DNA of 64,000 bases from Escherichia phage T4, in sequence record OZ209057.1. One strand, written 5' to 3'. Below the pieces are notes generated by a model that saw nothing but the letters and a program-made list of their open reading frames with translations, did not search any database and was not told where the DNA came from. Every line of letters starts with the position of its first letter. The stretch's first letter is position 1. Below are positions 12 through 56,357 of this stretch, one piece after another. Both the position numbers and the translations under genes were made by a program.

Positions 12-2189
12 TTAGGCCGCAAGGGCCTTCATAGTTTTAGCGATTTGGGAAACTTCATCATCACTTAAAGAGTTGCGATAACCGATGAAGTCGGAAACAA
101 TACGGAATTTCTTGGTAAACTCAGCAACCATTTTATCACTGTTTTTTGAAGCATTATTTGATAATACATCAAAAAGATTAGTTACTGTCCAAATGTCATG
201 ACCGATGGTATCTTTTCCACCATTAAAATATACACCCTGTAATGAACTAACCATATTAGCGAGTCGTGTATATTCTTCAGAAACTTCATCTATACTGAAG
301 TACTTCATCATAAAATCTAACTCAGGATACTTGATAATTTTATCAATATATCGTTTAGCTGAACTTGAATAACCTACATACTTATCATAATCTACATCAT
401 CAAAAGCATCTACATATAAATCACGCAAAGCTTCAAAAATACATTGGCACTGACCGAGTTCTTTTACCTTTTTCTGTAAAAGCGGACGAATAACATAAAA
501 TTCATTAATGCCAATAAGATTAGCCATACGAATCAAAATATTCATAGATGGATGACAAAGAGATGTAGTACCATCCATAGAGAAAATATCAGAACGATGC
601 ATATACGCTACATAACCAGTAATTTCATCTGCTTCTGATGTGAGCGTAAATAATTCCTCTTTTTCCCAGCGCCCGTCTTTAATTTCAAACTTAAACGCTG
701 TAGCAGCTTTAGGACGAGGAGCTTTACTTTTAACTACCTTTGGAATATAACTTTTTACTAAAGCTTCAATTTCTGACAAATAATGAATGTTAACTTCATC
801 ACTTTCAAACATCGCCATAATATCAGGAAGCAAATCAATCTGCGATTCTACTTCTGGATTAATAAACAGAAGACGTTCGTTATGATGAATATTCAAAGTG
901 TTATTAAATTCACTATCATCTAACGCACGTGCTAATCCACGGACAATATTAACACGATTTTTAATATTATCAATAACGATATTAATTTTTGTTGTATTAA
1001 TACCAAACAGACGATAACTTGATGCAACGGCTGAAGTTTCATGACTTTGCTTAATGCGCTTCAGTCGAGGGTCAAGATTTACTTCATACACAACTCCCGC
1101 GTTGCATAACTTACTGTCAGGTTCAAACATGCTCTGCATCTTTTTATATGACAGATTTTTAGTCGTGAATTTGACTGAATTACTAATCATATAATCTCGA
1201 GCAGAATACCCCATCTTCATCAATTCACGATATGTGTGACGAGGAGATGTAGATTCTTTAAATCGTTTTACATCTTCATTAAATGCTTTCTCACTGAGTT
1301 CTTTAACTCGTTCAATAATATTTTTACGAGTGCGATCATCCAGTGAAAGAGCCTCGCGAGATGGAGCAATATCAAGTGAACCCATTGGAAACTTAATGTA
1401 ATTCACTTCATTGCGAATGCTTAGCCAGTTACGGTCTCTAATAACACCATCGATAGGATAAACAATACCACCGTAGATAGCATATAATCCACCACGATCA
1501 GGCCAGTATCTTTCTGGATTTACACCGTAATAGTCATCAAAATCCGGAAAATAATCAATTTCGCGGTCAAGACCATTAATGATAGCCAAATCTTTGAACG
1601 GTCGCATGATATAAGAAACTTCATAAGCAAAGTTTCTAAAGTCTTTTTCTTCAACTGGAACTACGATTTCAATACCAGTTTTATCATCTGGACCCATTTC
1701 TTTTACGAATGTAGGTTTAATCTGTGGACCATCACCATCCATGTAAGCTACATAACCACGAATTTCACCTTTATGATACGAAGTAATACTAAACGTATCA
1801 GTATAACTAAACGGAGATTTAGAACCTAAACCAAATCCGCCAATAAAGTCATTAGATTCAGCTTTAGATGAACTGAAGTATGAATTATACAACCCAGGAG
1901 AATTATCATCACCTTGAATATCAAAATCACTCATACCCGGACCAAAATCTCGACAAACAAATCGTGGGTCTAAACGTCCAGGAACTTGTATGATAAATTT
2001 TTCAGGATTTCCATTAAGTGCATGAGCATCAATCATGTTAGTAATCAATTCACGGACTACTGCGCGAATCTTGTTTGTATACAAATCAGATGACAGAATT
2101 TTAAATACTTTAGGAGATGCTGTGATGCTAAATGCTTTTGATTTAGAACCATTACCAAGAATTGTTTCTTTTTCAGTGGTGATAATCAT
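12..2189 (-). CDS. rIIA: rIIA protein (GHKL/Bergerat-fold ATPase-like N-terminus; rapid-lysis / Rex-exclusion phenotype)
   Basis: 725 aa ORF, the length I recall for T4 rIIA; N-terminal motifs [27 protein letters not shown] fit a GHKL ATPase fold. Confidence 0.93.
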
Positions 2190-2199
2190 AATTTCCTCA

Positions 2200-2403
2200 T
2201 TAATTCATATTACGCTTAATAACTTCAGCAACTTCTAGTAGTTCATCTTTAGTTGCGGTGTCGGATTGAATTTTATCTCTAATATCTTTAAAGCGGGTTT
2301 TAAATTCTTCGGCTTCTCCCATATCGAAAAAGCGTTGAATGATTCTATATTCTCGATGAACTGCTTTATCAAAAAGTTCTAAATTTACTTTATATGATTT
2401 CAT
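2200..2403 (-). CDS. small hypothetical protein downstream of rIIA (rIIA.1 position)
   Basis: 67 aa ORF with ATG start, between early promoter at 2429..2458 and rIIA. Confidence 0.6.
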
Positions 2404-2428
2404 TTCAATATCCTCATTTGCCCAATTA

Positions 2429-2458
2429 ATTATACCACATCCTTGTGGTAAAGTAAAC
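2429..2458 (-). promoter_or_regulatory. T4 early-type promoter (minus strand GTTTAC-N18-TATAAT)
   Basis: revcomp reads GTTTACTTTACCACAAGGATGTGGTATAAT; near-identical copy at 50093..50122. Confidence 0.7.
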
Positions 2459-2990
2459 TACTGGCTCATCCATTCTTTACGAAGGTCAGCATTATCTCCC
2501 ATGAGCATTTCAAAAAGCTCTTTCCAGTTCTCAGGAAGTTTAACAACATCATATACTGGGTTTTGAATCATCTCACGATATTCAGATTTTTCCAAAGAGC
2601 CAAGTCCCTTAATATAACGGATGCTATGTTTAGGTAGAGCATCTTTGGCACTCTCATATTCAGCGACTGTATAAAACCATTCTTGTTTTTTACCGACCTG
2701 AGCGATGATTACAGGAGTTTTGACAAAGCGAATTCGTCCTTGCTCAAACAATTCTGGCCAATTACTAAAAAATCCGAGCAGAGAAGGATAAATAGAACCT
2801 AATCCAATAATCTCTTAATTATGAGGTATTTCTATAGATAGCCCGAAGGCTATCCATCGTGATCTGCGTCTGTCATAATAGCGACATTCGCATAGTTCAT
2901 TGAAGAGGATTTAATAGAACGACGAACATTGTTCTGCAATTTATATTTTTTCATATCAACGCTAGAAGAATCAATTTTTACAAATTTCAT
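2458..2990 (-). CDS. 60: DNA topoisomerase II subunit gp60 (GyrB C-terminal-like), translated with a 50-nt ribosomal bypass: codons 1-46 = 2853..2990, codons 47-160 = 2461..2802, stop 2458..2460
   Basis: N-term MKFVKIDSSS...IMTDADHDG (TOPRIM DxD) ends at GGA followed by TAG; downstream frame LGSIYPSLLGFF...KEWMSQ resumes after a GGA; total 160 aa. Confidence 0.92.
2803..2852 (-). other. 50-nt coding gap of gene 60 (programmed translational bypass / ribosome hopping element)
   Basis: minus strand: GGA|TAG CCTTCGGGCTATC...TTATT GGA|TTA; take-off GGA 2853..2855, UAG stop, CUUCGG stem-loop, landing GGA 2803..2805, resume codon UUA 2800..2802. Confidence 0.88.
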
Positions 2991-3789
2991 TATACACCTC
3001 ATAGAACTTTTCATCAGGAATCCAACCGCGTTTAAATTCATTAAATGCTCGGCCGAATAATTTTGAATTCACAGTTATATTATTAACTGATTTCCATTTA
3101 GCAACTCCCGTTCGTTTATAATGATCGGGGTCATATTTCGTGACGTACCATTCATATAAATTTGGTATTAATTTTACAGCCTCTGGATTTGTCGCTGATT
3201 TATTATACCATGGTTTCGCTTTTTCAAGTTCAGCTGCTTTTGCAGTAGCAGCAACAGTATTTCCAATACCAACTAATTTTTCAGTTTTAATGCGTGGATC
3301 ATTAACATGAAGACGAAAAACTTCGCCCTTTTCATTTTTAAAGCATGTCATGCCTTTAATTCCAGGAAGCTTAACACCTTTATTAACACCGCACCATTCC
3401 TTTGGGTTAAATGATCCTTTAATTAATAAGGCGCATTTACCCGATTTAATACTTCTCATTAAAACTTTATCTTTCATAAAGTTTTTTGACCATTCAGATA
3501 CTGCTCTTTGATGGTAAATTCTAGCAATTTCATATAATTTACTAGAACGTAAATATTTTTCAGTGTTTAACATTCTATTCATCGCATATGCCATTTCACG
3601 ATTACGATGAATTTTATATAGTAGAAAATGTGCTAAAAAGTGTTCACGAAAAGTCAGTTTCACCAAATTTTCTTTATCATCAGAACCTCCCATTGATCTT
3701 GGAAGGATATGATGAATTTCACCCTTAAATTTAGAAACGCGGGTTTTACCCCGCACTATTAAGTCATTATAGATTTTTTCGTAATTCAC
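2971..3789 (-). CDS. mobA: HNH-family homing endonuclease (MobA-like) between genes 39 and 60
   Basis: 272 aa; EIHHILPRSMGGSDDKENLV HNH motif; paralogous to mobB/mobC/mobD in this window; first codon is GTG where paralogs have ATG; overlaps gene 39 end and gene 60 start. Confidence 0.8.
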   Translation of the reverse strand: MNYEKIYNDLIVRGKTRVSKFKGEIHHILPRSMGGSDDKENLVKLTFREHFLAHFLLYKIHRNREMAYAMNRMLNTEKYLRSSKLYEIARIYHQRAVSEWSKNFMKDKVLMRSIKSGKCALLIKGSFNPKEWCGVNKGVKLPGIKGMTCFKNEKGEVFRLHVNDPRIKTEKLVGIGNTVAATAKAAELEKAKPWYNKSATNPEAVKLIPNLYEWYVTKYDPDHYKRTGVAKWKSVNNITVNSKLFGRAFNEFKRGWIPDEKFYEVYNEICKN

Positions 3790-5317
3790 CTACTGTTATC
3801 CATTTACCATTAATCTGTACTTCATCATTTTCATTTACGATAATTGTATCGCCATTTAGCTCGAAAGTAAACCACTCGCCATCTTCTTTTTCTTCAAACG
3901 CTTTTTCACCGAGAACTAGACCAGTGATTGCGCAAATATCAAATAGTTCTTTGTTTTTAAGCATATCTGCATAAGACATACCCCAACTGTTGAGAACTTT
4001 ACCACGCAATGGATAACCACCGTGAAGTTCTTTATCACGAACATCAATAAGATATCCGATAGCCGAATCACCCTCAGTCAAGAAAAGAGTAGTATCAGCA
4101 TCTTTACCGCAAAGATTCGCTTTGATATGTTTATGAACCTTAGCTTTAGAAGCCTTTTTAGCTGCTTTAGTTTCTGCTGCTTTTTCTGCCGCCAATTTAC
4201 GAGCCAAAGCAGCTTCAATAATCGGCATTAGAATTGCTTCATTATTTAGAATAGCACGTGAAATCTTTTTAGCATCAAGTTGAATATGACTACGAATTTC
4301 GCCAAATGGAGAAGTCAAACGCTCTTTAGTTTGAGAATCAAATCGCATGTTTTTCATATCACGAACAAACATAACGATAGTCAAACATTCTTTGACACGT
4401 GCTTTAGTCACATCAATTTTGAACTTACGTTTGATTTGTGGAATAAGGTCTTCACAAATATCATCCATAGCGCAGTCAATGTGATGGCCACCATTCTTAG
4501 TATGAATGTTATTGACGTATGTTAATTGACGAAAACCATCCGGTGAACGACCAACCGCAATAGAACAATTTTCTTGCTCTTGAACAATAGCATGTTCATC
4601 ATACTGCCGTGCATATTTCTTAAAATTGCCCTGAACCTTTTTACCATTAAAGGTAAATTGAATATCAGGATAAACTACAGCAAGTGTCTGGAGACGATCC
4701 AGTGTAATGTCAAGATAAACTTGGGACAGCTCATTAGTTTCAAATGACATAAAATCAGGAATGAAAGTAACACGAGTTCCTTTCCATTTTCCAGGAATAT
4801 CTTCCCATGATTTATTTTCCATGCCATTTGAACAACGAACTACAATATTATTTTGACCGTCGCCAGTTTCACCGACAAACATCACAGAAAAAATGTTTGT
4901 CAAACTAGAACCAACACCGTTCATACCGCCGGTGACGCGTTCTTTATCATCACCAAAGTTACCACCTGCTTTTGGAATAGTCCATGCGGCAACAGGACCA
5001 GGAATTTCTTCACCGGTAGGTGTTTTAACCATCGCTTGTGGAATACCGCGACCGTTATCTTCAACTGTTACTTGATTGTTTTTAATAGTAACATTAATTT
5101 TATTCGCGAATTTAAACTTAGTACGAATACCTTCATCTACTGAGTTATCGATAATTTCATCAATAAGCTTAACAAGACCAGGTACATACTGAACACTTTC
5201 CCATTTACCAAACATAAAGCGCTCATGCGTTTCATTAGCAGAAGAGCCAATGTACATGCCACTACGCTTTTTGATATGTTCAATATCGCTCAGAATTTTA
5301 ATTTCATTCTTAATCAT
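3767..5317 (-). CDS. 39: DNA topoisomerase II large subunit gp39 (GyrB-like ATPase + start of TOPRIM)
   Basis: 516 aa from ATG at 5317; EDNGRGIP (ATP-lid G1), TEGDSA (TOPRIM) motifs; length matches T4 gp39 as recalled. Confidence 0.92.
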   Translation of the reverse strand: MIKNEIKILSDIEHIKKRSGMYIGSSANETHERFMFGKWESVQYVPGLVKLIDEIIDNSVDEGIRTKFKFANKINVTIKNNQVTVEDNGRGIPQAMVKTPTGEEIPGPVAAWTIPKAGGNFGDDKERVTGGMNGVGSSLTNIFSVMFVGETGDGQNNIVVRCSNGMENKSWEDIPGKWKGTRVTFIPDFMSFETNELSQVYLDITLDRLQTLAVVYPDIQFTFNGKKVQGNFKKYARQYDEHAIVQEQENCSIAVGRSPDGFRQLTYVNNIHTKNGGHHIDCAMDDICEDLIPQIKRKFKIDVTKARVKECLTIVMFVRDMKNMRFDSQTKERLTSPFGEIRSHIQLDAKKISRAILNNEAILMPIIEAALARKLAAEKAAETKAAKKASKAKVHKHIKANLCGKDADTTLFLTEGDSAIGYLIDVRDKELHGGYPLRGKVLNSWGMSYADMLKNKELFDICAITGLVLGEKAFEEKEDGEWFTFELNGDTIIVNENDEVQINGKWITVGELRKNL

Positions 5318-5369
5318 CACTTATCCTCGTTTGGTTTCGGGAATATTATACTCCGGTAATCATAAAGCT

Positions 5370-5388
5370 AAAGGCCCGAAGGCCTTTT
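5370..5388 (-). terminator. stem-loop with UUCG tetraloop in minus-strand transcript (RNA stability/terminator element)
   Basis: aaaggcc cgaa ggccttt palindrome between 39.1-like ORF and gene 39; weak U-run on minus strand. Confidence 0.5.
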
Positions 5389-5647
5389 ATTTAAAACGAA
5401 TAGTTGAATCCTTAAAGAACAGCCCAGAACATACTGTTCCTTCTACTTTCTGCCCGGTAGGTCCAATAGCACGAAATCCAGTATGCTGGAAATCATTTTC
5501 AGAGCAACCGAACCAATTATATCCAGTGATTTCAATATTAGTAAAACCACTTGAAGACAAAACTTTGGTTGCATTATCAGCATCAGTACATCCTATTAAA
5601 GACACTGCTAATACTAATGCTGCAATAGAACGATTAATATATTTCAT
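5387..5647 (-). CDS. predicted lipoprotein (39.1 position)
   Basis: 86 aa; signal peptide with lipobox LIGC (AALVLAVSLIGC). Confidence 0.6.
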   Translation of the reverse strand: MKYINRSIAALVLAVSLIGCTDADNATKVLSSSGFTNIEITGYNWFGCSENDFQHTGFRAIGPTGQKVEGTVCSGLFFKDSTIRFK

Positions 5648-5649
5648 AA

Positions 5650-5826
5650 TTACCCTTTAAGCAAGTCGTAAAATCCACCATTCACATGCTTAGGAGCGGA
5701 AACTAACCGAACAGCCAGCCGATGACAATCAGGACATACATCAGTATCTCTTTCAGAAATTTTCTTGATTTTTTCGTATTCTTTTGCACAGTCTTTGGAT
5801 TGACATTTATAATCATAAAGCGGCAT
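5650..5826 (-). CDS. 58-aa zinc-ribbon protein (CxxC...CPxC, FmdB-like)
   Basis: hand-translated ORF MPLYDYKCQSKDCAKEYEKIKKISERDTDVCPDCHRLAV...; below the 60-aa track cutoff. Confidence 0.5.
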   Translation of the reverse strand: MPLYDYKCQSKDCAKEYEKIKKISERDTDVCPDCHRLAVRLVSAPKHVNGGFYDLLKG

Positions 5827-37033: not shown

Positions 37034-37828
37034 CTACGAATAGGCCCAAACATATCCATAAGCAATTTTGCTTTTTCCAGATATGCACTTTTTAATATTA
37101 GACATGCATCCTTTAACGGATACAGCTGCGTCTTTAATTCTAGGAAATACTCGTAATAATTTTCCAGTAGTATCATATTGAAATACTGGCACATTTCTTT
37201 TCTGAGTTATCCCACGTTTAGATTTAGACATTTTTTGTTTAGTTGCATTAGACATCCTAGAGGGCTTTCCTATGTTATCAGAATAATAATATTTCCATTG
37301 AAATCCTCCAGCGGTTTTCCTTTTACCATCTACACATTGTTTAATTGAAGTTGAACAGCTATATGACATATCTTCTGCAGCATCTGTAATACATCTATAT
37401 TTGCGAATAAAATTTCCATTTAAATCATATTGATAAATTGGTTTTCCAGCATTTCGTCTAGCGTTAGACATGTATTTTTTATTATCATCATCTTTCCAGA
37501 ACTCTTTCATGCTTTCCGATATTGAAGAAGATACAGCTGTTTTAATCCATCCATACATTTTATTATTTAGTCTTGTTCCGTCAGAACTATAACACATCAT
37601 ACGAATAGCTAAAGCCAATTTAGGAAGTCTATAAATTTTAAATAATAATAAATGCGCGGTAAAATGTTCTTCTGGTGTCAAAAGAACTAAATTAGTTTTA
37701 TCATCTGTACCACCCATACATCTAGGAATTATATGATGTGTTTCAGTATAGTATGTCAAAAGACTTTTATCATTGTCTCTGTTTAGTCCTTTTTCGATCA
37801 GTAAATTATATATGTTTAAATAATTCAT
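37034..37828 (-). CDS. mobB: HNH homing endonuclease MobB
   Basis: 264 aa; ETHHIIPRCMGGTDDKTNLV HNH motif. Confidence 0.8.
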   Translation of the reverse strand: MNYLNIYNLLIEKGLNRDNDKSLLTYYTETHHIIPRCMGGTDDKTNLVLLTPEEHFTAHLLLFKIYRLPKLALAIRMMCYSSDGTRLNNKMYGWIKTAVSSSISESMKEFWKDDDNKKYMSNARRNAGKPIYQYDLNGNFIRKYRCITDAAEDMSYSCSTSIKQCVDGKRKTAGGFQWKYYYSDNIGKPSRMSNATKQKMSKSKRGITQKRNVPVFQYDTTGKLLRVFPRIKDAAVSVKGCMSNIKKCISGKSKIAYGYVWAYS

Positions 37829-41594: not shown

Positions 41595-42065
41595 TTAATC
41601 ATGTTTCCACACCCCATCGGTATTTGACCAAAGTCGCTGATTATCTGATCCTCGCCACAGCTTTTTGGTCGGAAGATTTTTCTCATACTTCCCATCAATA
41701 ATAACATCAACATATTTAAGCATTTCTAGTTGTTTAATATCTTCAAACTTATATCCTGTCCACAACCAGATATCTTTCTCCGGAAATCTTGCTTTAACCC
41801 AAGAAACTAAATTTGAAATCTCTTCTCGGTTCTGTGGATAAAGTGGGTCACCGCCGGTTAAGGTAAGGCCTTGGATATACGATTTGCTTAAATGGGACGC
41901 AAGTTCTTTAACGGTATTCATAGTGAATAACTGTCCGTTACGAGCATTCCAAGTACTACGATTATAACAACCTTCGCATTTATGCAAACATCCAGTGACG
42001 AAGAGAACGACCCTACATCCAGGGCCGTTAACGAAATCGCATGGATAAATTCTATCATAATTCAT
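41595..42065 (-). CDS. nrdG: anaerobic ribonucleotide reductase activating protein NrdG (radical SAM)
   Basis: 156 aa from ATG at 42065; CLHKCEGC radical-SAM cluster motif. Confidence 0.88.
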   Translation of the reverse strand: MNYDRIYPCDFVNGPGCRVVLFVTGCLHKCEGCYNRSTWNARNGQLFTMNTVKELASHLSKSYIQGLTLTGGDPLYPQNREEISNLVSWVKARFPEKDIWLWTGYKFEDIKQLEMLKYVDVIIDGKYEKNLPTKKLWRGSDNQRLWSNTDGVWKHD

Positions 42066-42687
42066 CTTTATATTTCCAAGTATATCCCTTATGAATAGAT
42101 TGAATTCCTTTGCAACATTTATAAACAGCAGAATGAAAAAATCCTGCATTTCTTATTTCAGTTGCTCCAGTTAGTTCTATTGTATTTCCGTCTGGTGAAT
42201 AGCCAATAACCGTTTTGGTGTTAAAGCGATTTCTAGAACTATTTTTGATATGCTCTTTATGATTAGTAGACAAAGTTCTTCCTGTTAGCCCATCAGATAT
42301 CCTTTTTCCAAAATCATCAGGAAGAGTTACTTTAGACCTAGCTATGCTCATTAGCTTCTTAGTTTTATCGCTTCTTTTTGCGCCACGCTGATTTTCAAAT
42401 TTCTTAGCTTTTGCATACGCGTATTGTGAAGAAGTAACTTTTCTATGCTTACTATTACTCATTATCCAATATGCATCATACATCTTTCCACCATATATTT
42501 TAGCCAATAAATGGTGAGCAGTATAGTGGGCCTTATAAGTTAAAAATACTAAGTTGTCTAAATCATCTGAACCACCCATACTTCTTGGAATTATATGATG
42601 AAGTTCATACCCGGCTTTAGTTTGACGGGGCTTAGATGGGTGTTCAGCAGAATTAACTAGATTTGAATAGATTCTGTCATAATTCAT
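42055..42687 (-). CDS. mobC: HNH homing endonuclease MobC
   Basis: 210 aa; ELHHIIPRSMGGSDDLDNLV. Confidence 0.8.
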   Translation of the reverse strand: MNYDRIYSNLVNSAEHPSKPRQTKAGYELHHIIPRSMGGSDDLDNLVFLTYKAHYTAHHLLAKIYGGKMYDAYWIMSNSKHRKVTSSQYAYAKAKKFENQRGAKRSDKTKKLMSIARSKVTLPDDFGKRISDGLTGRTLSTNHKEHIKNSSRNRFNTKTVIGYSPDGNTIELTGATEIRNAGFFHSAVYKCCKGIQSIHKGYTWKYKDEL

Positions 42688-54563: not shown

Positions 54564-54581
54564 GGGAGCCCGAAGGCTCCC
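54564..54581 (-). terminator. rho-independent terminator (UUCG hairpin + U6)
   Basis: gggagcc cgaa ggctccc preceded on plus strand by aaaaaa. Confidence 0.75.
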
Positions 54582-54583
54582 TA

Positions 54584-55630
54584 TCATTTATAATAACTTC
54601 GATGGTTTTCAAGATAAACCCTCTCAAGGAAGTCATCCCAGAAACTCATGTCTACTTTTTGCTGCATACCGTTCTTAGAAGCTTCAGTAGATGCTGCTTC
54701 TACTTGATCGACCACATCTTCCAAAAACTCTTGAACGGTTTTAAATGGATGCTTACCCAACTTCACGTCGAGAATAAATGGAGCATCTTGGAGTGGATAA
54801 ACCAAGTCACCAGTTTTGTAAATTTCCAATAGTTGAAGTCCACCACGACAAGCATGGCTCAGAGCTTTCCAGTCAATGCCTTCATTGGCTTCGGCCTTAC
54901 GAGCACGTTCGCCGTATTCAGCATCTAATTTGTTCAGTGACTGCTTAAGCTCAATAAGAGAAAGCGTTGTCTGATATTTACGACCCAACACTGTGTAAAA
55001 CGTTTGTGGGCCTGTTTTCTCATGATTATGGAACACCCATTCACAGAATTCGTTTTCTGGAAGACGATGCTTAATATCTTCAACTTTAGTACGACGCTGC
55101 TTAATGGAACCATCTTCTTGGTAATCAACCCATTGCTCAGGGATTTGATTAACTACTTTCAATACATCGCGTAATGCAGCCAAACGAGAACCCTTGACGC
55201 CGTATTTAGAAGCTTGCTTGCGGACATATCCTAAATATGATTTCATGTTAGTCGTATAAAAACGAGAACGGTTGTCTTGAATAAACTTCCACACATCAGG
55301 CAAATCGGATTTAACCACTAGTTCAGGTGGAGTGTGGAGCATATCCAATGCTACAGTTTCACCATCTGCTGCTAATTTAAAGAAATACTTAAGACTATAC
55401 AATTCGTGGTCAATATCATCTTTAGTGTTTTTAGATGATGTGTTGTTGGTATTTTTACTCATGTGCTCTTTGACGTTTCCAATAAGAATATCGCGAGCAG
55501 GAGGAACAAAGATTTCTTTAAAATCTACATCAGATTCTGGAGTAGAAGTTCCATAAAGATGACTACCAAAATAAGACTTAACTACAGTTTTCATTATTAG
55601 ACCTTTCATAATCTTCATTAAATTGTACAA
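54584..55630 (-). CDS. predicted nucleotidyltransferase-fold protein, nrdC.11 position
   Basis: 348 aa; N-terminal FGSHLYGTSTPESDVDFKEIF resembles pol-beta-type NTase GS...DxD motif. Confidence 0.5.
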   Translation of the reverse strand: MYNLMKIMKGLIMKTVVKSYFGSHLYGTSTPESDVDFKEIFVPPARDILIGNVKEHMSKNTNNTSSKNTKDDIDHELYSLKYFFKLAADGETVALDMLHTPPELVVKSDLPDVWKFIQDNRSRFYTTNMKSYLGYVRKQASKYGVKGSRLAALRDVLKVVNQIPEQWVDYQEDGSIKQRRTKVEDIKHRLPENEFCEWVFHNHEKTGPQTFYTVLGRKYQTTLSLIELKQSLNKLDAEYGERARKAEANEGIDWKALSHACRGGLQLLEIYKTGDLVYPLQDAPFILDVKLGKHPFKTVQEFLEDVVDQVEAASTEASKNGMQQKVDMSFWDDFLERVYLENHRSYYK

Positions 55631-56357
55631 TCAATCGATGATAATTAGATTTTGGATATCCTAATTTACTTATATAAGTTCCGAATGACCCACGTTTAGG
55701 TCTATTTAATTTAATCCATAACTTATAAAGTAAGTCATAGTCTTGCCAATGTTTACCAGTTCTTTGTCTAATTTTAGATGAATTTGATTGTTTCTTTTTA
55801 GTTTCAAAATTATTCAAAGATTTTTTGACTGCAGCAGAGTGTTTTTCTTTAACTCCCGGTCGTTTAAAAGCAGCTTTCACCCCTTTAGATATTTTTTCTT
55901 TAACTTCCGGTTTGTTTTGTGCTTCTAACTGGGATTCTGAAATTTTAGCCCTTATTTCAGGAAGACTTAATGTTATCGAACGTTTTTCTCTGTATTCATT
56001 AGACTTCCACATTTCTTTCATTGTATTAGAATGTATTTTTGAAAATTTTTCTCTAACTAACTGATATCCTCTTGAAGTTAATTTGAGATTTCTTCCTAAA
56101 GAATCTTCTCCAAAATTATAAAATGACCACCATGCATAAATTAATCCAGGCGAATTGTAATGAATTTTAGCTAAAAGCCAATGGGCTATAAAATGCTCTC
56201 TAGCTGTTAATAAAACTAGATTATCAGAATCATCATTACCACCAATACAAGATGGAATAATATGATGCTTTTCCGTATAAAAATTTAATTTAGATTTATC
56301 TAATTTTCTGAGTTTTCCTTTCTTAATTAAATTATTATATACTTTAGTATAATTCAT
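55578..56357 (-). CDS. mobD: HNH homing endonuclease MobD
   Basis: 259 aa; EKHHIIPSCIGGNDDSDNLV. Confidence 0.8.
   Translation of the reverse strand: MNYTKVYNNLIKKGKLRKLDKSKLNFYTEKHHIIPSCIGGNDDSDNLVLLTAREHFIAHWLLAKIHYNSPGLIYAWWSFYNFGEDSLGRNLKLTSRGYQLVREKFSKIHSNTMKEMWKSNEYREKRSITLSLPEIRAKISESQLEAQNKPEVKEKISKGVKAAFKRPGVKEKHSAAVKKSLNNFETKKKQSNSSKIRQRTGKHWQDYDLLYKLWIKLNRPKRGSFGTYISKLGYPKSNYHRLIVQFNEDYERSNNENCS

Follow-up and report, generated by a model that had tools for sequence, protein, structure and literature searches.

The DNA analysed here (the window) comprises the first 64 kb of phage T4, and its positions 2400–5400 were 100% identical to the phage T4 records OZ209023.1 and HM137666.1. 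An ORF listing of this region placed gene 39, mobA and gene 60 on the minus strand, on which all features of the locus given below also lie. A preliminary description had read positions 2458–5320 as a topoisomerase II gene split into genes 39 and 60 with mobA between them, and the ORFs together with a comparison against phages T2 and T6 confirmed this reading. Gene 39 overlaps mobA by 23 nt (3767..3789) and mobA overlaps gene 60 by 20 nt (2971..2990), both as had been claimed; the extent of the locus also stood, except for the beginning of gene 39, which is more likely to be ATG 5317 than GTG 5320.

Gene 39 (3767..5317) is an ORF of 516 codons plus a stop codon, annotated with the same coordinates in OZ209023 and HM137666. 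The in-frame GTG at 5320 is also present in the ORF; however, the Shine-Dalgarno (SD) sequence GAGGA is located 6 nt from ATG 5317 and only 3 nt from GTG 5320. Based on this spacing, and on the start at 5317 annotated in public records, ATG 5317 is most likely the start of the gene. The encoded gp39 consists of the N-terminal 473 residues of a GyrB-like topoisomerase II large subunit followed by a tail of 43 residues. A GHKL ATPase domain at residues 47–149 (4871..5179; Pfam PF02518 HATPase_c, 38.8 bits against a cut-off of 26.4) and the TOPRIM motif TEGDSA at residues 414–419 (4061..4078), the first of two such motifs, bore out their earlier assignment to gp39. The contiguous T2 protein likewise has this motif at position 414, and a transducer domain of gp39 was found at residues 249–384 (4166..4573; Pfam PF00204 DNA_gyraseB, 49.3 bits against a cut-off of 27). 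A search of the PDB with gp39 retrieved 8yo3_C (E=0) and 8ylu_C, the gp39 of phage T6, which aligned to residues 1–473, as well as ATPase structures of GyrB, ParE and Top2. In the T4/T2 alignment, collinearity stops after residue 473, and the C-terminal extension of residues 474–516 (FEEKEDGEW...GELRKNL; 3770..3898) is encoded by the inserted element described below. This tail was kept in the other MobA clades. The final residues of the tail (G/S-E-L...) are, for T4 and the Proteus phages, read from the first codons of mobA in another frame.

Gene 60 comprises 46 codons (2853..2990) and, beyond a gap, 114 codons plus a stop (2458..2802). Its SD sequence GAGGTG (2995..3000) is contained in the C-terminal ‘YEV’ codons of MobA and pairs strongly with the anti-SD, with a duplex energy of −9.5 kcal/mol; four of the five clades have GAGGT at this place ahead of gene 60, and the Aeromonas phage has GGAGT. 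Codons 1–30 (2901..2990) form an element-specific N-terminal extension with no counterpart in T2 and hold most of the nascent-peptide signal for ribosome bypassing, the head being identical to the nascent peptide represented by the 46-amino acid chain 5np6_C. Codons 31–46, termed homR (MNYANVAIMTDADHDG; 2853..2900), are the element's own copy of the topoisomerase segment that it replaced. The second TOPRIM motif, IMTDADHDG (gp60 residues 38–46; 2853..2879), falls within this segment and ends exactly at the take-off codon GGA (2853..2855), which is codon 46.

Directly after the take-off GGA there is a UAG stop (2850..2852), the beginning of an untranslated coding gap of 50 nt (2803..2852) that is absent from T2 and T6 and that NC_000866 and HM137666 mark as the bypass region. 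The landing GGA (2803..2805) matches the take-off GGA. The centroid structure contained a take-off stem-loop (2834..2857) with a 10-bp stem and a UUCG tetraloop that takes in both the GGA and the UAG, the z-score of the whole folded stretch of 91 nt being only −1.5. The core of the hairpin, GCCTTCGGGC, occurs three times in the window, with 0.04 occurrences expected. Codons 47–160 encode the rest of the TOPRIM domain and the C-terminal domain (Pfam TOPRIM_C, 34.2 bits against a cut-off of 29), which, like the second TOPRIM motif, had correctly been attributed to gp60. All 114 residues of this part (47–160) are identical to the C-terminus of the T2 protein, and when the frames are joined across the gap the resulting sequence, ...DADHDG followed by LGSIYPSLL, is that of T2. 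The joined gp60 of 160 amino acids matched 8yo3_C from end to end. Bypassing of the gap by ribosomes has been established experimentally for the gene 60 sequence (summarised in Manning and Atkins 2022).

Against the solved chains of T4 gp39-gp60 and T6 gp39, the two proteins gave E-values from 0 to 1e-84. In cellular homologs, gp39 and gp60 abut at a single point, as expected for halves of one GyrB-like protein: in yeast Top2 (4gfh) gp39 reaches residue 512 and gp60 begins at 510, in human TOP2A the junction is at 527/527, and in Escherichia coli GyrB it is at 481/486; the two proteins also abut in the coordinates of 6zy5 and 6rks. As judged by these alignments, the similarity of gp39 and gp60 to type IIA enzymes lies beyond chance. 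Residues 1–473 of gp39 and 31–160 of gp60 are collinear with residues 1–605 of T2 gp39. The conserved glutamate of the TOPRIM domain is in EGDSA on gp39, and the acidic cluster DADHD constitutes residues 41–45 of gp60. Pfam Toprim did not match gp39 alone; with the T4 halves rejoined (the C-terminal part of gp39 to residue 473 and gp60 from residue 31) it scored 19.2 bits, below the cut-off of 23.1, and with the T2 protein a likewise sub-threshold 17.6 bits, the weak match crossing the junction only when the two halves were joined. The TOPRIM membership thus rests on the motifs and the PDB alignments, not on the Pfam Toprim score. By cryo-EM, the gp39 tail and the gp60 head form an insertion of ~70 amino acids in the TOPRIM domain that leaves activity unaltered, in an enzyme assembled with the GyrA-like cleavage subunit gp52 (PMC11461880).

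Phages T2 and T6, the T-even relatives proposed for comparison, have a single uninterrupted gene of 605 codons. Alignment of T4 with T2 and a junction search delimited a MobA element of 1106 nt (2794..3899) that is absent from T2 and T6, which have 64 nt in its place; the junctions were clean and T6 gave the same outcome. The element contains the gp39 tail, mobA, the gp60 head and the 50-nt gap. The published T4 39/mobA/60 cassette (Bonocora, Zeng, Abel and Shub 2011; Manning and Atkins 2022) is the same locus, with the same 1106 nt, 64 nt replaced, a 43-amino acid tail, a head of 30+16 amino acids and a 50-nt gap, the published range for the MobA element being 1097–1106 nt with a 64-nt deletion (Manning and Atkins 2022). 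At the protein level homR is homologous to T2 residues 476–491, whereas its 48 nt of DNA are only 76.6% identical to T6, compared with 97–99% in the flanks. The divergence of homR and the 50-nt insert that follows it would fit an altered target site in the carrier allele. As cited in later papers, Bonocora 2011 reported that MobA transfers the split gene together with the insert to T2 and that nicking is prevented by the insert.

The element was detected in about 41 of 532 related phage records (those matching at least 80% of the query), with a patchy distribution, and most of the others matched with the block missing. In phage e11/2 the cassette is 99–100% identical to that of T4, compared with 95–96% in the adjoining gene 39, a step of the kind that lateral transfer would leave. 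The corresponding step between cassette and flank was weak in HY03 and pSe_SNUABM_01, in which the tail region is only 94–95.5% identical to T4. The contiguous gene of T2 and T6, the discreteness of the block, its patchy distribution and the identity step in e11/2 agree with the mobile-cassette reading put forward in the preliminary description. The opposite polarity, in which T-even phages originally had the split form and T2 and T6 acquired a contiguous gene by a later deletion and fusion, would be compatible with the cryo-EM study, which allows ‘gene-fusion or gene-separation’ as the origin of the split (PMC11461880), and loss does occur, since the endonuclease and the bypass have been lost and the ORF re-fused in some clades (Manning and Atkins 2022). 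However, the re-fused genes described in the literature retain the tail and the head, and T2 and T6 have neither. Furthermore, all cellular and eukaryotic homologs are contiguous across the junction point, about 490 of the 532 related records are without the block, the block brings with it a homing endonuclease as well as a second version, diverged in sequence, of the 16 codons that it replaced, and the e11/2 cassette is closer to T4 than its flanking gene 39. We therefore consider an ancestral split very improbable.

The mobA gene (2971..3789, with the same coordinates in HM137666) is an intact ORF of 272 codons with a GTG start, encoding an HNH homing endonuclease. MobA matched PHROG 655 ‘homing endonuclease’ with E=2e-57, and the Pfam HNH score of 20.1 bits was just under the cut-off of 21.4. 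Alignment located the HNH catalytic motif at residues 24–54 (3628..3720), with E24, H26, H27, N41, H50 and H54, columns that were invariant in eight sequences (five MobA orthologs together with MobB, MobC and MobD). Searches of the PDB with MobA returned short HNH-motif matches only (E about 0.01–0.8), with local ones to a group II intron maturase and to Cas8-HNH, and no homing endonuclease structure. MobA has been reported to nick its target and to be inherited at high frequency, and its gene to be promoter-less, with a GUG start and a 23-bp overlap (PMC2988022).

The records NC_000866.4 and AF158101.6 annotate a ‘MobA homing endonuclease pseudogene’ together with a gene ‘60.1’, and the pseudogene label has been repeated (Uzan and Miller 2010; Manning and Atkins 2022). 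If this label were correct, mobA would be dead and the cassette in T4 an immobile relic. Compared with the window, NC_000866 has 11 scattered single-base insertions within 220 nt, which break mobA. These insertions were found only in AF158101/NC_000866 and in the 1980s entry X06220, and are missing from eleven other records of T4, RB55 and RB59, which were 100% identical to the window. As judged by this comparison, the pseudogene and ‘60.1’ of NC_000866 are almost certainly a sequencing artefact. The window holds one intact ORF of 272 codons in which the HNH residues are intact, and codon differences in mobA within the T4 clade were mostly synonymous (12, against 4 non-synonymous). The ‘hypothetical protein gp60.1’ of proteomic studies is the C-terminus of MobA (residues 147–272), and in published T4 proteomics it was detected in infected cells, accumulating from 5–12 min of infection (PMC9697503 supplements), in line with expression of mobA. 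A dead mobA is thus hard to credit.

The GTG start of mobA (3787..3789), which has an in-frame TAG directly upstream, is 20 nt upstream of the gene 39 stop and is the sole possible start of the complete ORF. As claimed earlier, it occupies the position of the ATG of the paralogs, GTGAATTAC in mobA aligning with ATGAATTAT, and it likewise aligns with the ATG of orthologs from other clades. On an identity tree of MobA, the polarity of GTG versus ATG required two steps either way. Pairing of the 22 nt upstream of mobA with the anti-SD amounted to −3.1 kcal/mol, the median of random positions. Scans of the cassette for Sigma-70, MotA-box and late-promoter consensus sequences gave nothing convincing, with counts at or below shuffle expectation, and as weak negative evidence this fits a promoter-less mobA. 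A start-occluding hairpin at mobA was rejected as a candidate because the fold was no stronger than those of shuffled sequences (z = −1.5). Since mobA is without its own promoter or a useful SD sequence and its GTG is located inside the end of gene 39, ribosomes in the course or at the end of gene 39 translation probably produce MobA from this message in small amounts.

The peptides detected by proteomics all map to the C-terminal half of MobA (limited to residues 147–272), and therefore do not give the place of the translation start. This, and a GTG with SD pairing no better than random, would accommodate synthesis from an internal ATG (Met33 or Met147) or as a gp39-MobA fusion. For the latter, the 23-nt overlap contains a run of six A residues, read as CGA AAA AAT in the gene 39 frame and GAA AAA ATC in the mobA frame, on which a +1 slip of Lys-tRNA on AAA AAA would join the two frames. 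However, the N-terminus MNYxxIY is conserved from exactly the GTG codon in all orthologs and paralogs, and a start at Met33 would drop H26 and H27 of the HNH motif. Neither a hungry codon nor a stop follows the slip site, and the frameshift fusion was rejected as the A-run is missing in the S16 and Pm5461 orthologs, which have ATGA or short overlaps instead. There is little likelihood that MobA is translated from anywhere other than the GTG. A separate suggestion, which we regard as possible but doubtful, is that the GTG of T4 and the Proteus phages is a by-product of dual coding: the first base of the mobA start codon would be G because the codon of the gp39 tail is xGT. Both with this layout and with the ATGA stop-start overlap of the three other clades, MobA synthesis would be slaved to and throttled by translation of gene 39. 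If true, this would explain why ‘gp60.1’ appears later than gp39 and gp60 despite the same early transcript.

Orthologs of MobA are present at the same site in phages of Salmonella, Proteus, Acinetobacter and Aeromonas, representing four other clades; in every case the topoisomerase is split and a stop follows ...TDAD(V/P/H)D(G). In the Straboviridae S16, Pm5461, fHyAci03 and 50AhydR13PP, the insertion site and the order of tail, HNH gene and head are the same as in T4, and MobA is homologous to T4 MobA over its full length with 39–61% identity. As in T4, a strong SD of the downstream half is placed within the C-terminal codons of MobA in these elements. Unlike in T4, the ATG start of mobA in S16, fHyAci03 and 50AhydR13PP shares the four nucleotides ATGA with the stop codon of gene 39, whereas T4, with its 23-nt overlap, and Pm5461, with a 14-nt overlap, have GTG. 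Three other HNH ORFs in the window (37034..37828, 42055..42687 and 55578..56357) all start with ATGAATTAT (MNY). MobB, MobC and MobD of T4, all encoded in the window, share with MobA the MNYxxIY N-terminus, the HNH core and weak SD pairing (−2.9 to −3.8 kcal/mol), but start with ATG, are situated between genes, have unrelated C-terminal regions and are only 27–32% identical to MobA overall. MobE, a free-standing HNH protein encoded between nrdA and nrdB in T4 and T6, is ~47% identical over MobA residues 1–118. Like mobA, its gene is promoter-less and overlaps the upstream ORF, and its product nicks its target; in Aeromonas phage Aeh1 it splits nrdA, an essential gene, the halves of which reassemble (PMC2988022). 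MobE differs from MobA in an unrelated C-terminal, presumed DNA-binding, domain, in its target and in the lack of translational bypass.

Taken together, the locus very probably represents a selfish cassette of 1.1 kb that was copied into the TOPRIM part of a once-contiguous gene for the topoisomerase II large subunit, and nothing in the sequence contradicts this model. The cassette would consist of mobA and a 43-codon tail closing the upstream half (gene 39), and would supply the downstream half (gene 60) with a ribosome-binding site, a start codon and a 30-codon head; it would also hold the 50-nt insert and, in a diverged version of its own, the 16 codons that it replaced. Based on the literature, during mixed infection MobA would nick the unsplit gene of a phage such as T2, the cassette would then be copied into the nicked genome by recombinational repair, and the carrier would be protected by the 50-nt insert, which breaks the MobA recognition site. 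Ribosomes leave at the GGA of codon 46, pass over 50 nt and resume at the GGA that matches it, so that gp60 is produced in frame, and the tail and head may help gp39 and gp60 to reassemble as an active enzyme with gp52.

The interpretation given in the preliminary description is correct, and its elements have already been published: the GTG start and 23-nt overlap of mobA by Edgell, Gibb and Belfort (2010; PMC2988022), and the cassette model in Bonocora 2011, as cited in later papers, in Manning and Atkins 2022 and in the 2024 cryo-EM study (PMC11461880). Confirmation of the 39-mobA-60 locus adds no new biology, and the by-products are modest. One of these is that the widely used RefSeq record of T4 mis-annotates mobA, a label that recent papers carry on. 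Another is that start codon and overlap architecture differ among the MobA clades, which could be of use for studying how expression of homing endonucleases is restrained. Programmed translational bypassing as a phenomenon goes back to this classic locus, which also illustrates clearly how a homing endonuclease can split an essential gene and bring with it the parts that keep this gene working.

The window corresponds to the left end of the phage T4 genome: rIIA lies at 12..2189, as in T4, and positions 2400-5400 are 100% identical to the T4 records OZ209023.1 and HM137666.1. The genes of the split topoisomerase locus are all on the minus strand. Gene 39 (3767..5317) is an ORF of 516 codons, mobA (2971..3789; annotated with identical coordinates in HM137666) is an ORF of 272 codons with a GTG start, and gene 60 consists of 46 codons (2853..2990), the last being GGA followed by UAG, a 50-nt gap (2803..2852) with a second GGA at its end, and a further 114 codons plus stop (2458..2802). 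mobA overlaps gene 39 by 23 nt (3767..3789) and gene 60 by 20 nt (2971..2990), as a preliminary description had reported. The locus had been placed there at 2458-5320, which was borne out except at the right end, where 5320 marks a GTG in the same frame, one codon before the ATG at 5317. The start was taken as 5317, because the spacing of the GAGGA Shine-Dalgarno sequence of gene 39 is 6 nt to this ATG and just 3 nt to the GTG, and because T4 records annotate it there. Upstream of gene 39, at 5575-5753, the window differs from NC_000866.4 by indels and substitutions additional to those in mobA (below); 39.1 (5387..5647) has 86 codons in the window versus 65 in the reference annotation, and 39.2 (5650..5826) has 58 versus 45.

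Several lines of evidence identify genes 39 and 60 as pieces of one topoisomerase gene. The GyrB-like ATPase ascribed to gp39 was confirmed by matches to the GHKL ATPase and transducer domains, both above Pfam cut-offs, and the first TOPRIM motif, TEGDSA, was located at residues 414-419; gp60 gave a Pfam TOPRIM_C match, agreeing with the C-terminal domain assigned to it, and carries the second motif, IMTDADHDG, at residues 38-46, whose last codon is the take-off codon. Each protein matched the solved T4 gp39-gp60 fusion (8yo3) and T6 gp39 (8ylu). In unrelated enzymes the gp39 end and the gp60 start adjoin (yeast Top2 512/510, human TOP2A 527/527, E. coli GyrB 481/486). A weak, sub-threshold Toprim Pfam match crossed the junction both in T2 and in the T4 halves rejoined after removal of the element-encoded C-terminal residues of gp39 (the tail) and the unique N-terminal residues of gp60 (the head); it was not found with the C-terminal part of gp39 alone. 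Comparison with T-even relatives, as had been suggested, gave one uninterrupted protein of 605 residues for both T2 and T6. Residues 1-473 of gp39 are collinear with the T2 protein, with 9 mismatches in the first 478 aligned positions (including the first five tail residues), and the final 114 residues of that protein recur unchanged as gp60 residues 47-160.

Alignment of T4 with T2 showed near-perfect identity to window position 3900, after which 1106 nt (3899..2794) replace 64 nt of T2 before identity returns. This block comprises the 43-codon gp39 tail, mobA, the unique 30-codon gp60 head, a 48-nt copy of the replaced segment (76.6% identity to T6 versus 97-99% in the flanks), the 50-nt gap and another 9 diverged bases. 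Its sizes agree with those of the MobA element described by Manning and Atkins (2022), in which 1097-1106 nt accompany the loss of 64 nt and supply a tail of ~43 aa and a 30+16-aa head. Just 41 of 532 matching phage records covered 80% or more of the 3-kb query; in most of the others coverage was 63%, with the block missing. Phage e11/2 is 99.2-100% identical to T4 in the block and 95.2% identical over the 500 nt of gene 39 next to it, an abrupt change such as would be expected after lateral transfer; the contrast is weaker in HY03 and pSe_SNUABM_01. Automatic annotation is inconsistent among cassette-bearing records: mobA of pSe_SNUABM_01 (NC_054937.1, 2888-3706) is annotated short, from an internal ATG, the e11/2 record labels mobA 'MobE', and gene 60 usually appears as two separate 'DNA topoisomerase II' ORFs or as one of them only.

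In the reading already favoured in the preliminary description, invasion of a once-contiguous gene by a mobile cassette, the steps shown by the sequence are that the ancestor was contiguous, that the block is discrete, that the HNH gene is intact, and that gene 60 has bypass signals and a strong internal ribosome-binding site. An ancestral split state is argued against by cellular homologues, which are all contiguous, by T2 and T6, which have no remnant of tail or head, and by the second copy of the replaced codons inside the block. As to how the cassette moves, passages in Manning and Atkins (2022) and PMC2988022 describe nicking of the uninterrupted allele by MobA and copying of the block into T2 in mixed infection, with self-nicking blocked by the 50-nt insert and not by silent substitutions. 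Tail and head together form a pendant TOPRIM insertion that leaves activity unchanged and probably assists assembly (PMC11461880).

MobA matched PHROG 655 'homing endonuclease' (E=2e-57), its Pfam HNH score being slightly below the cut-off. It was aligned with orthologues from Salmonella phage S16, Proteus phage Pm5461, Acinetobacter phage fHyAci03 and Aeromonas phage 50AhydR13PP and with MobB, MobC and MobD from the window; H26, H27, N41, H50 and H54 were invariant in all eight sequences. The orthologues are homologous over their full length (39-61% identity), whereas MobB, MobC and MobD have the N-terminal third alone in common with MobA. All four orthologue genes sit between the halves of a split topoisomerase gene, the second half opening with a short ORF that ends ...TDADxD(G)-stop. 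Elsewhere in the window, mobC and the adjacent nrdG start nearly alike (42043-42065 and 42665-42687, minus strand; 21 of 23 nt identical), both encoding MNYDRIY, which suggests that insertion of mobC duplicated the nrdG 5' end or proceeded by recombination through it.

In NC_000866.4 (AF158101.6) the mobA stretch is annotated as '60.1' plus 'MobA pseudogene', and pseudogene status has been repeated in reviews and papers up to 2022 (including Manning and Atkins, 2022). Relative to the window (3449-3656), that record (3450-3667) has 11 single-base insertions scattered through 220 nt, confined to NC_000866.4/AF158101.6 and the 1980s entry X06220. Because eleven further records (of T4, RB55 and RB59) match the window exactly here, the pseudogene looks like an artefact of sequencing in the compiled reference, apparently dating from the 1980s. 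This artefact pattern and the intact ORF argue against a dead mobA in T4. Codon differences in mobA within the T4 clade were synonymous in 12 cases and non-synonymous in 4.

The GTG start proposed for mobA held, as the conserved MNYxxIY N-terminus opens at exactly this codon; mobB, mobC and mobD, all in the window, begin ATGAATTAT, and mobA has GTGAATTAC at the aligned place. The preceding in-frame codon is a stop, TAG (in one relative TAA), which excludes an upstream start, and initiation at the first in-frame ATG, Met33, would remove H26 and H27. mobA is the sole free-standing T4 endonuclease gene with a predicted GUG start; it is promoter-less, has a 23-bp overlap with the upstream ORF, and scanning ribosomes have been proposed to re-initiate there to a limited extent (Edgell, Gibb and Belfort, 2010; PMC2988022). 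A consensus scan found no MotA-box or late-promoter consensus within the block. The 22-nt stretch before the GTG pairs with the 3' end of 16S at -3.1 kcal/mol, equal to the median for random positions, and the gene 60 ribosome-binding site GAGGUG pairs at -9.5 kcal/mol. In S16, fHyAci03 and 50AhydR13PP mobA starts with ATG, which overlaps the stop codon of gene 39 as ATGA, whereas in T4 and Pm5461 it starts with GTG and overlaps gene 39 by 23 and 14 nt, respectively. In the latter two the first mobA codons encode, in the other frame, the gp39 tail residues G/S-E-L; since the tail codon is xGT, the mobA start codon must have G first, and this dual coding may be the reason for the GTG. An A6 run on the coding strand (T6 on plus) at 3764-3769, within the overlap, could in principle give a frameshift fusion, a +1 slip of Lys-tRNA shifting ribosomes from the gene 39 to the mobA frame, but it has no conserved counterpart in the orthologues of S16 or Pm5461 and is therefore probably without function.

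Gene 60 has the signals for bypass, namely a pair of matched GGAs, the UAG and a hairpin with a 10-bp stem and a UUCG loop. The 10-mer GCCTTCGGGC, a C(UUCG)G tetraloop hairpin core, has three copies in the window (2841-2850, 5374-5383 and 54568-54577, minus strand) versus 0.04 expected, one being the gene 60 take-off hairpin and another lying directly upstream of gene 39. Hairpins of the C(UUCG)G type are a familiar feature of T4 intercistronic regions. Of the five clades examined, four encode the gene 60 Shine-Dalgarno sequence (GAGGT; 2995-3000) in conserved 'YEV' codons close to the C-terminus of MobA, the exception being the Aeromonas phage with GGAGT within 'VEF' codons. The conserved C-terminal motif FYEVxNEI of MobA is therefore dually constrained, since it shares its sequence with the ribosome-binding site, start codon and MKF of gene 60.

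The preliminary observation is thus accurate and its interpretation right, and the entire picture, GTG start and overlap included, is already published. MobA would be translated at a low level, coupled to gene 39. 'gp60.1' (P39487) corresponds to MobA residues 147-272 (2971-3351, minus strand). In a T4 infection time course it was absent at up to 3 min, present in some replicates at 5-8 min, on the rise from 5-12 min after infection and at ~2e8 LFQ by 20-30 min, being classed as 'early RNA, late protein', with gp39 and gp60 classed as 'early RNA, middle protein' (Wolfram-Schauerte et al., 2022; PMC9697503). Given the identity of '60.1' with this part of MobA, a MobA polypeptide is therefore made, later than its neighbours, which also speaks against a dead gene. 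The proteomics of PMC9697503 (Tables S2-S4; 'hypothetical protein gp60.1') is unrecognised evidence for MobA translation.
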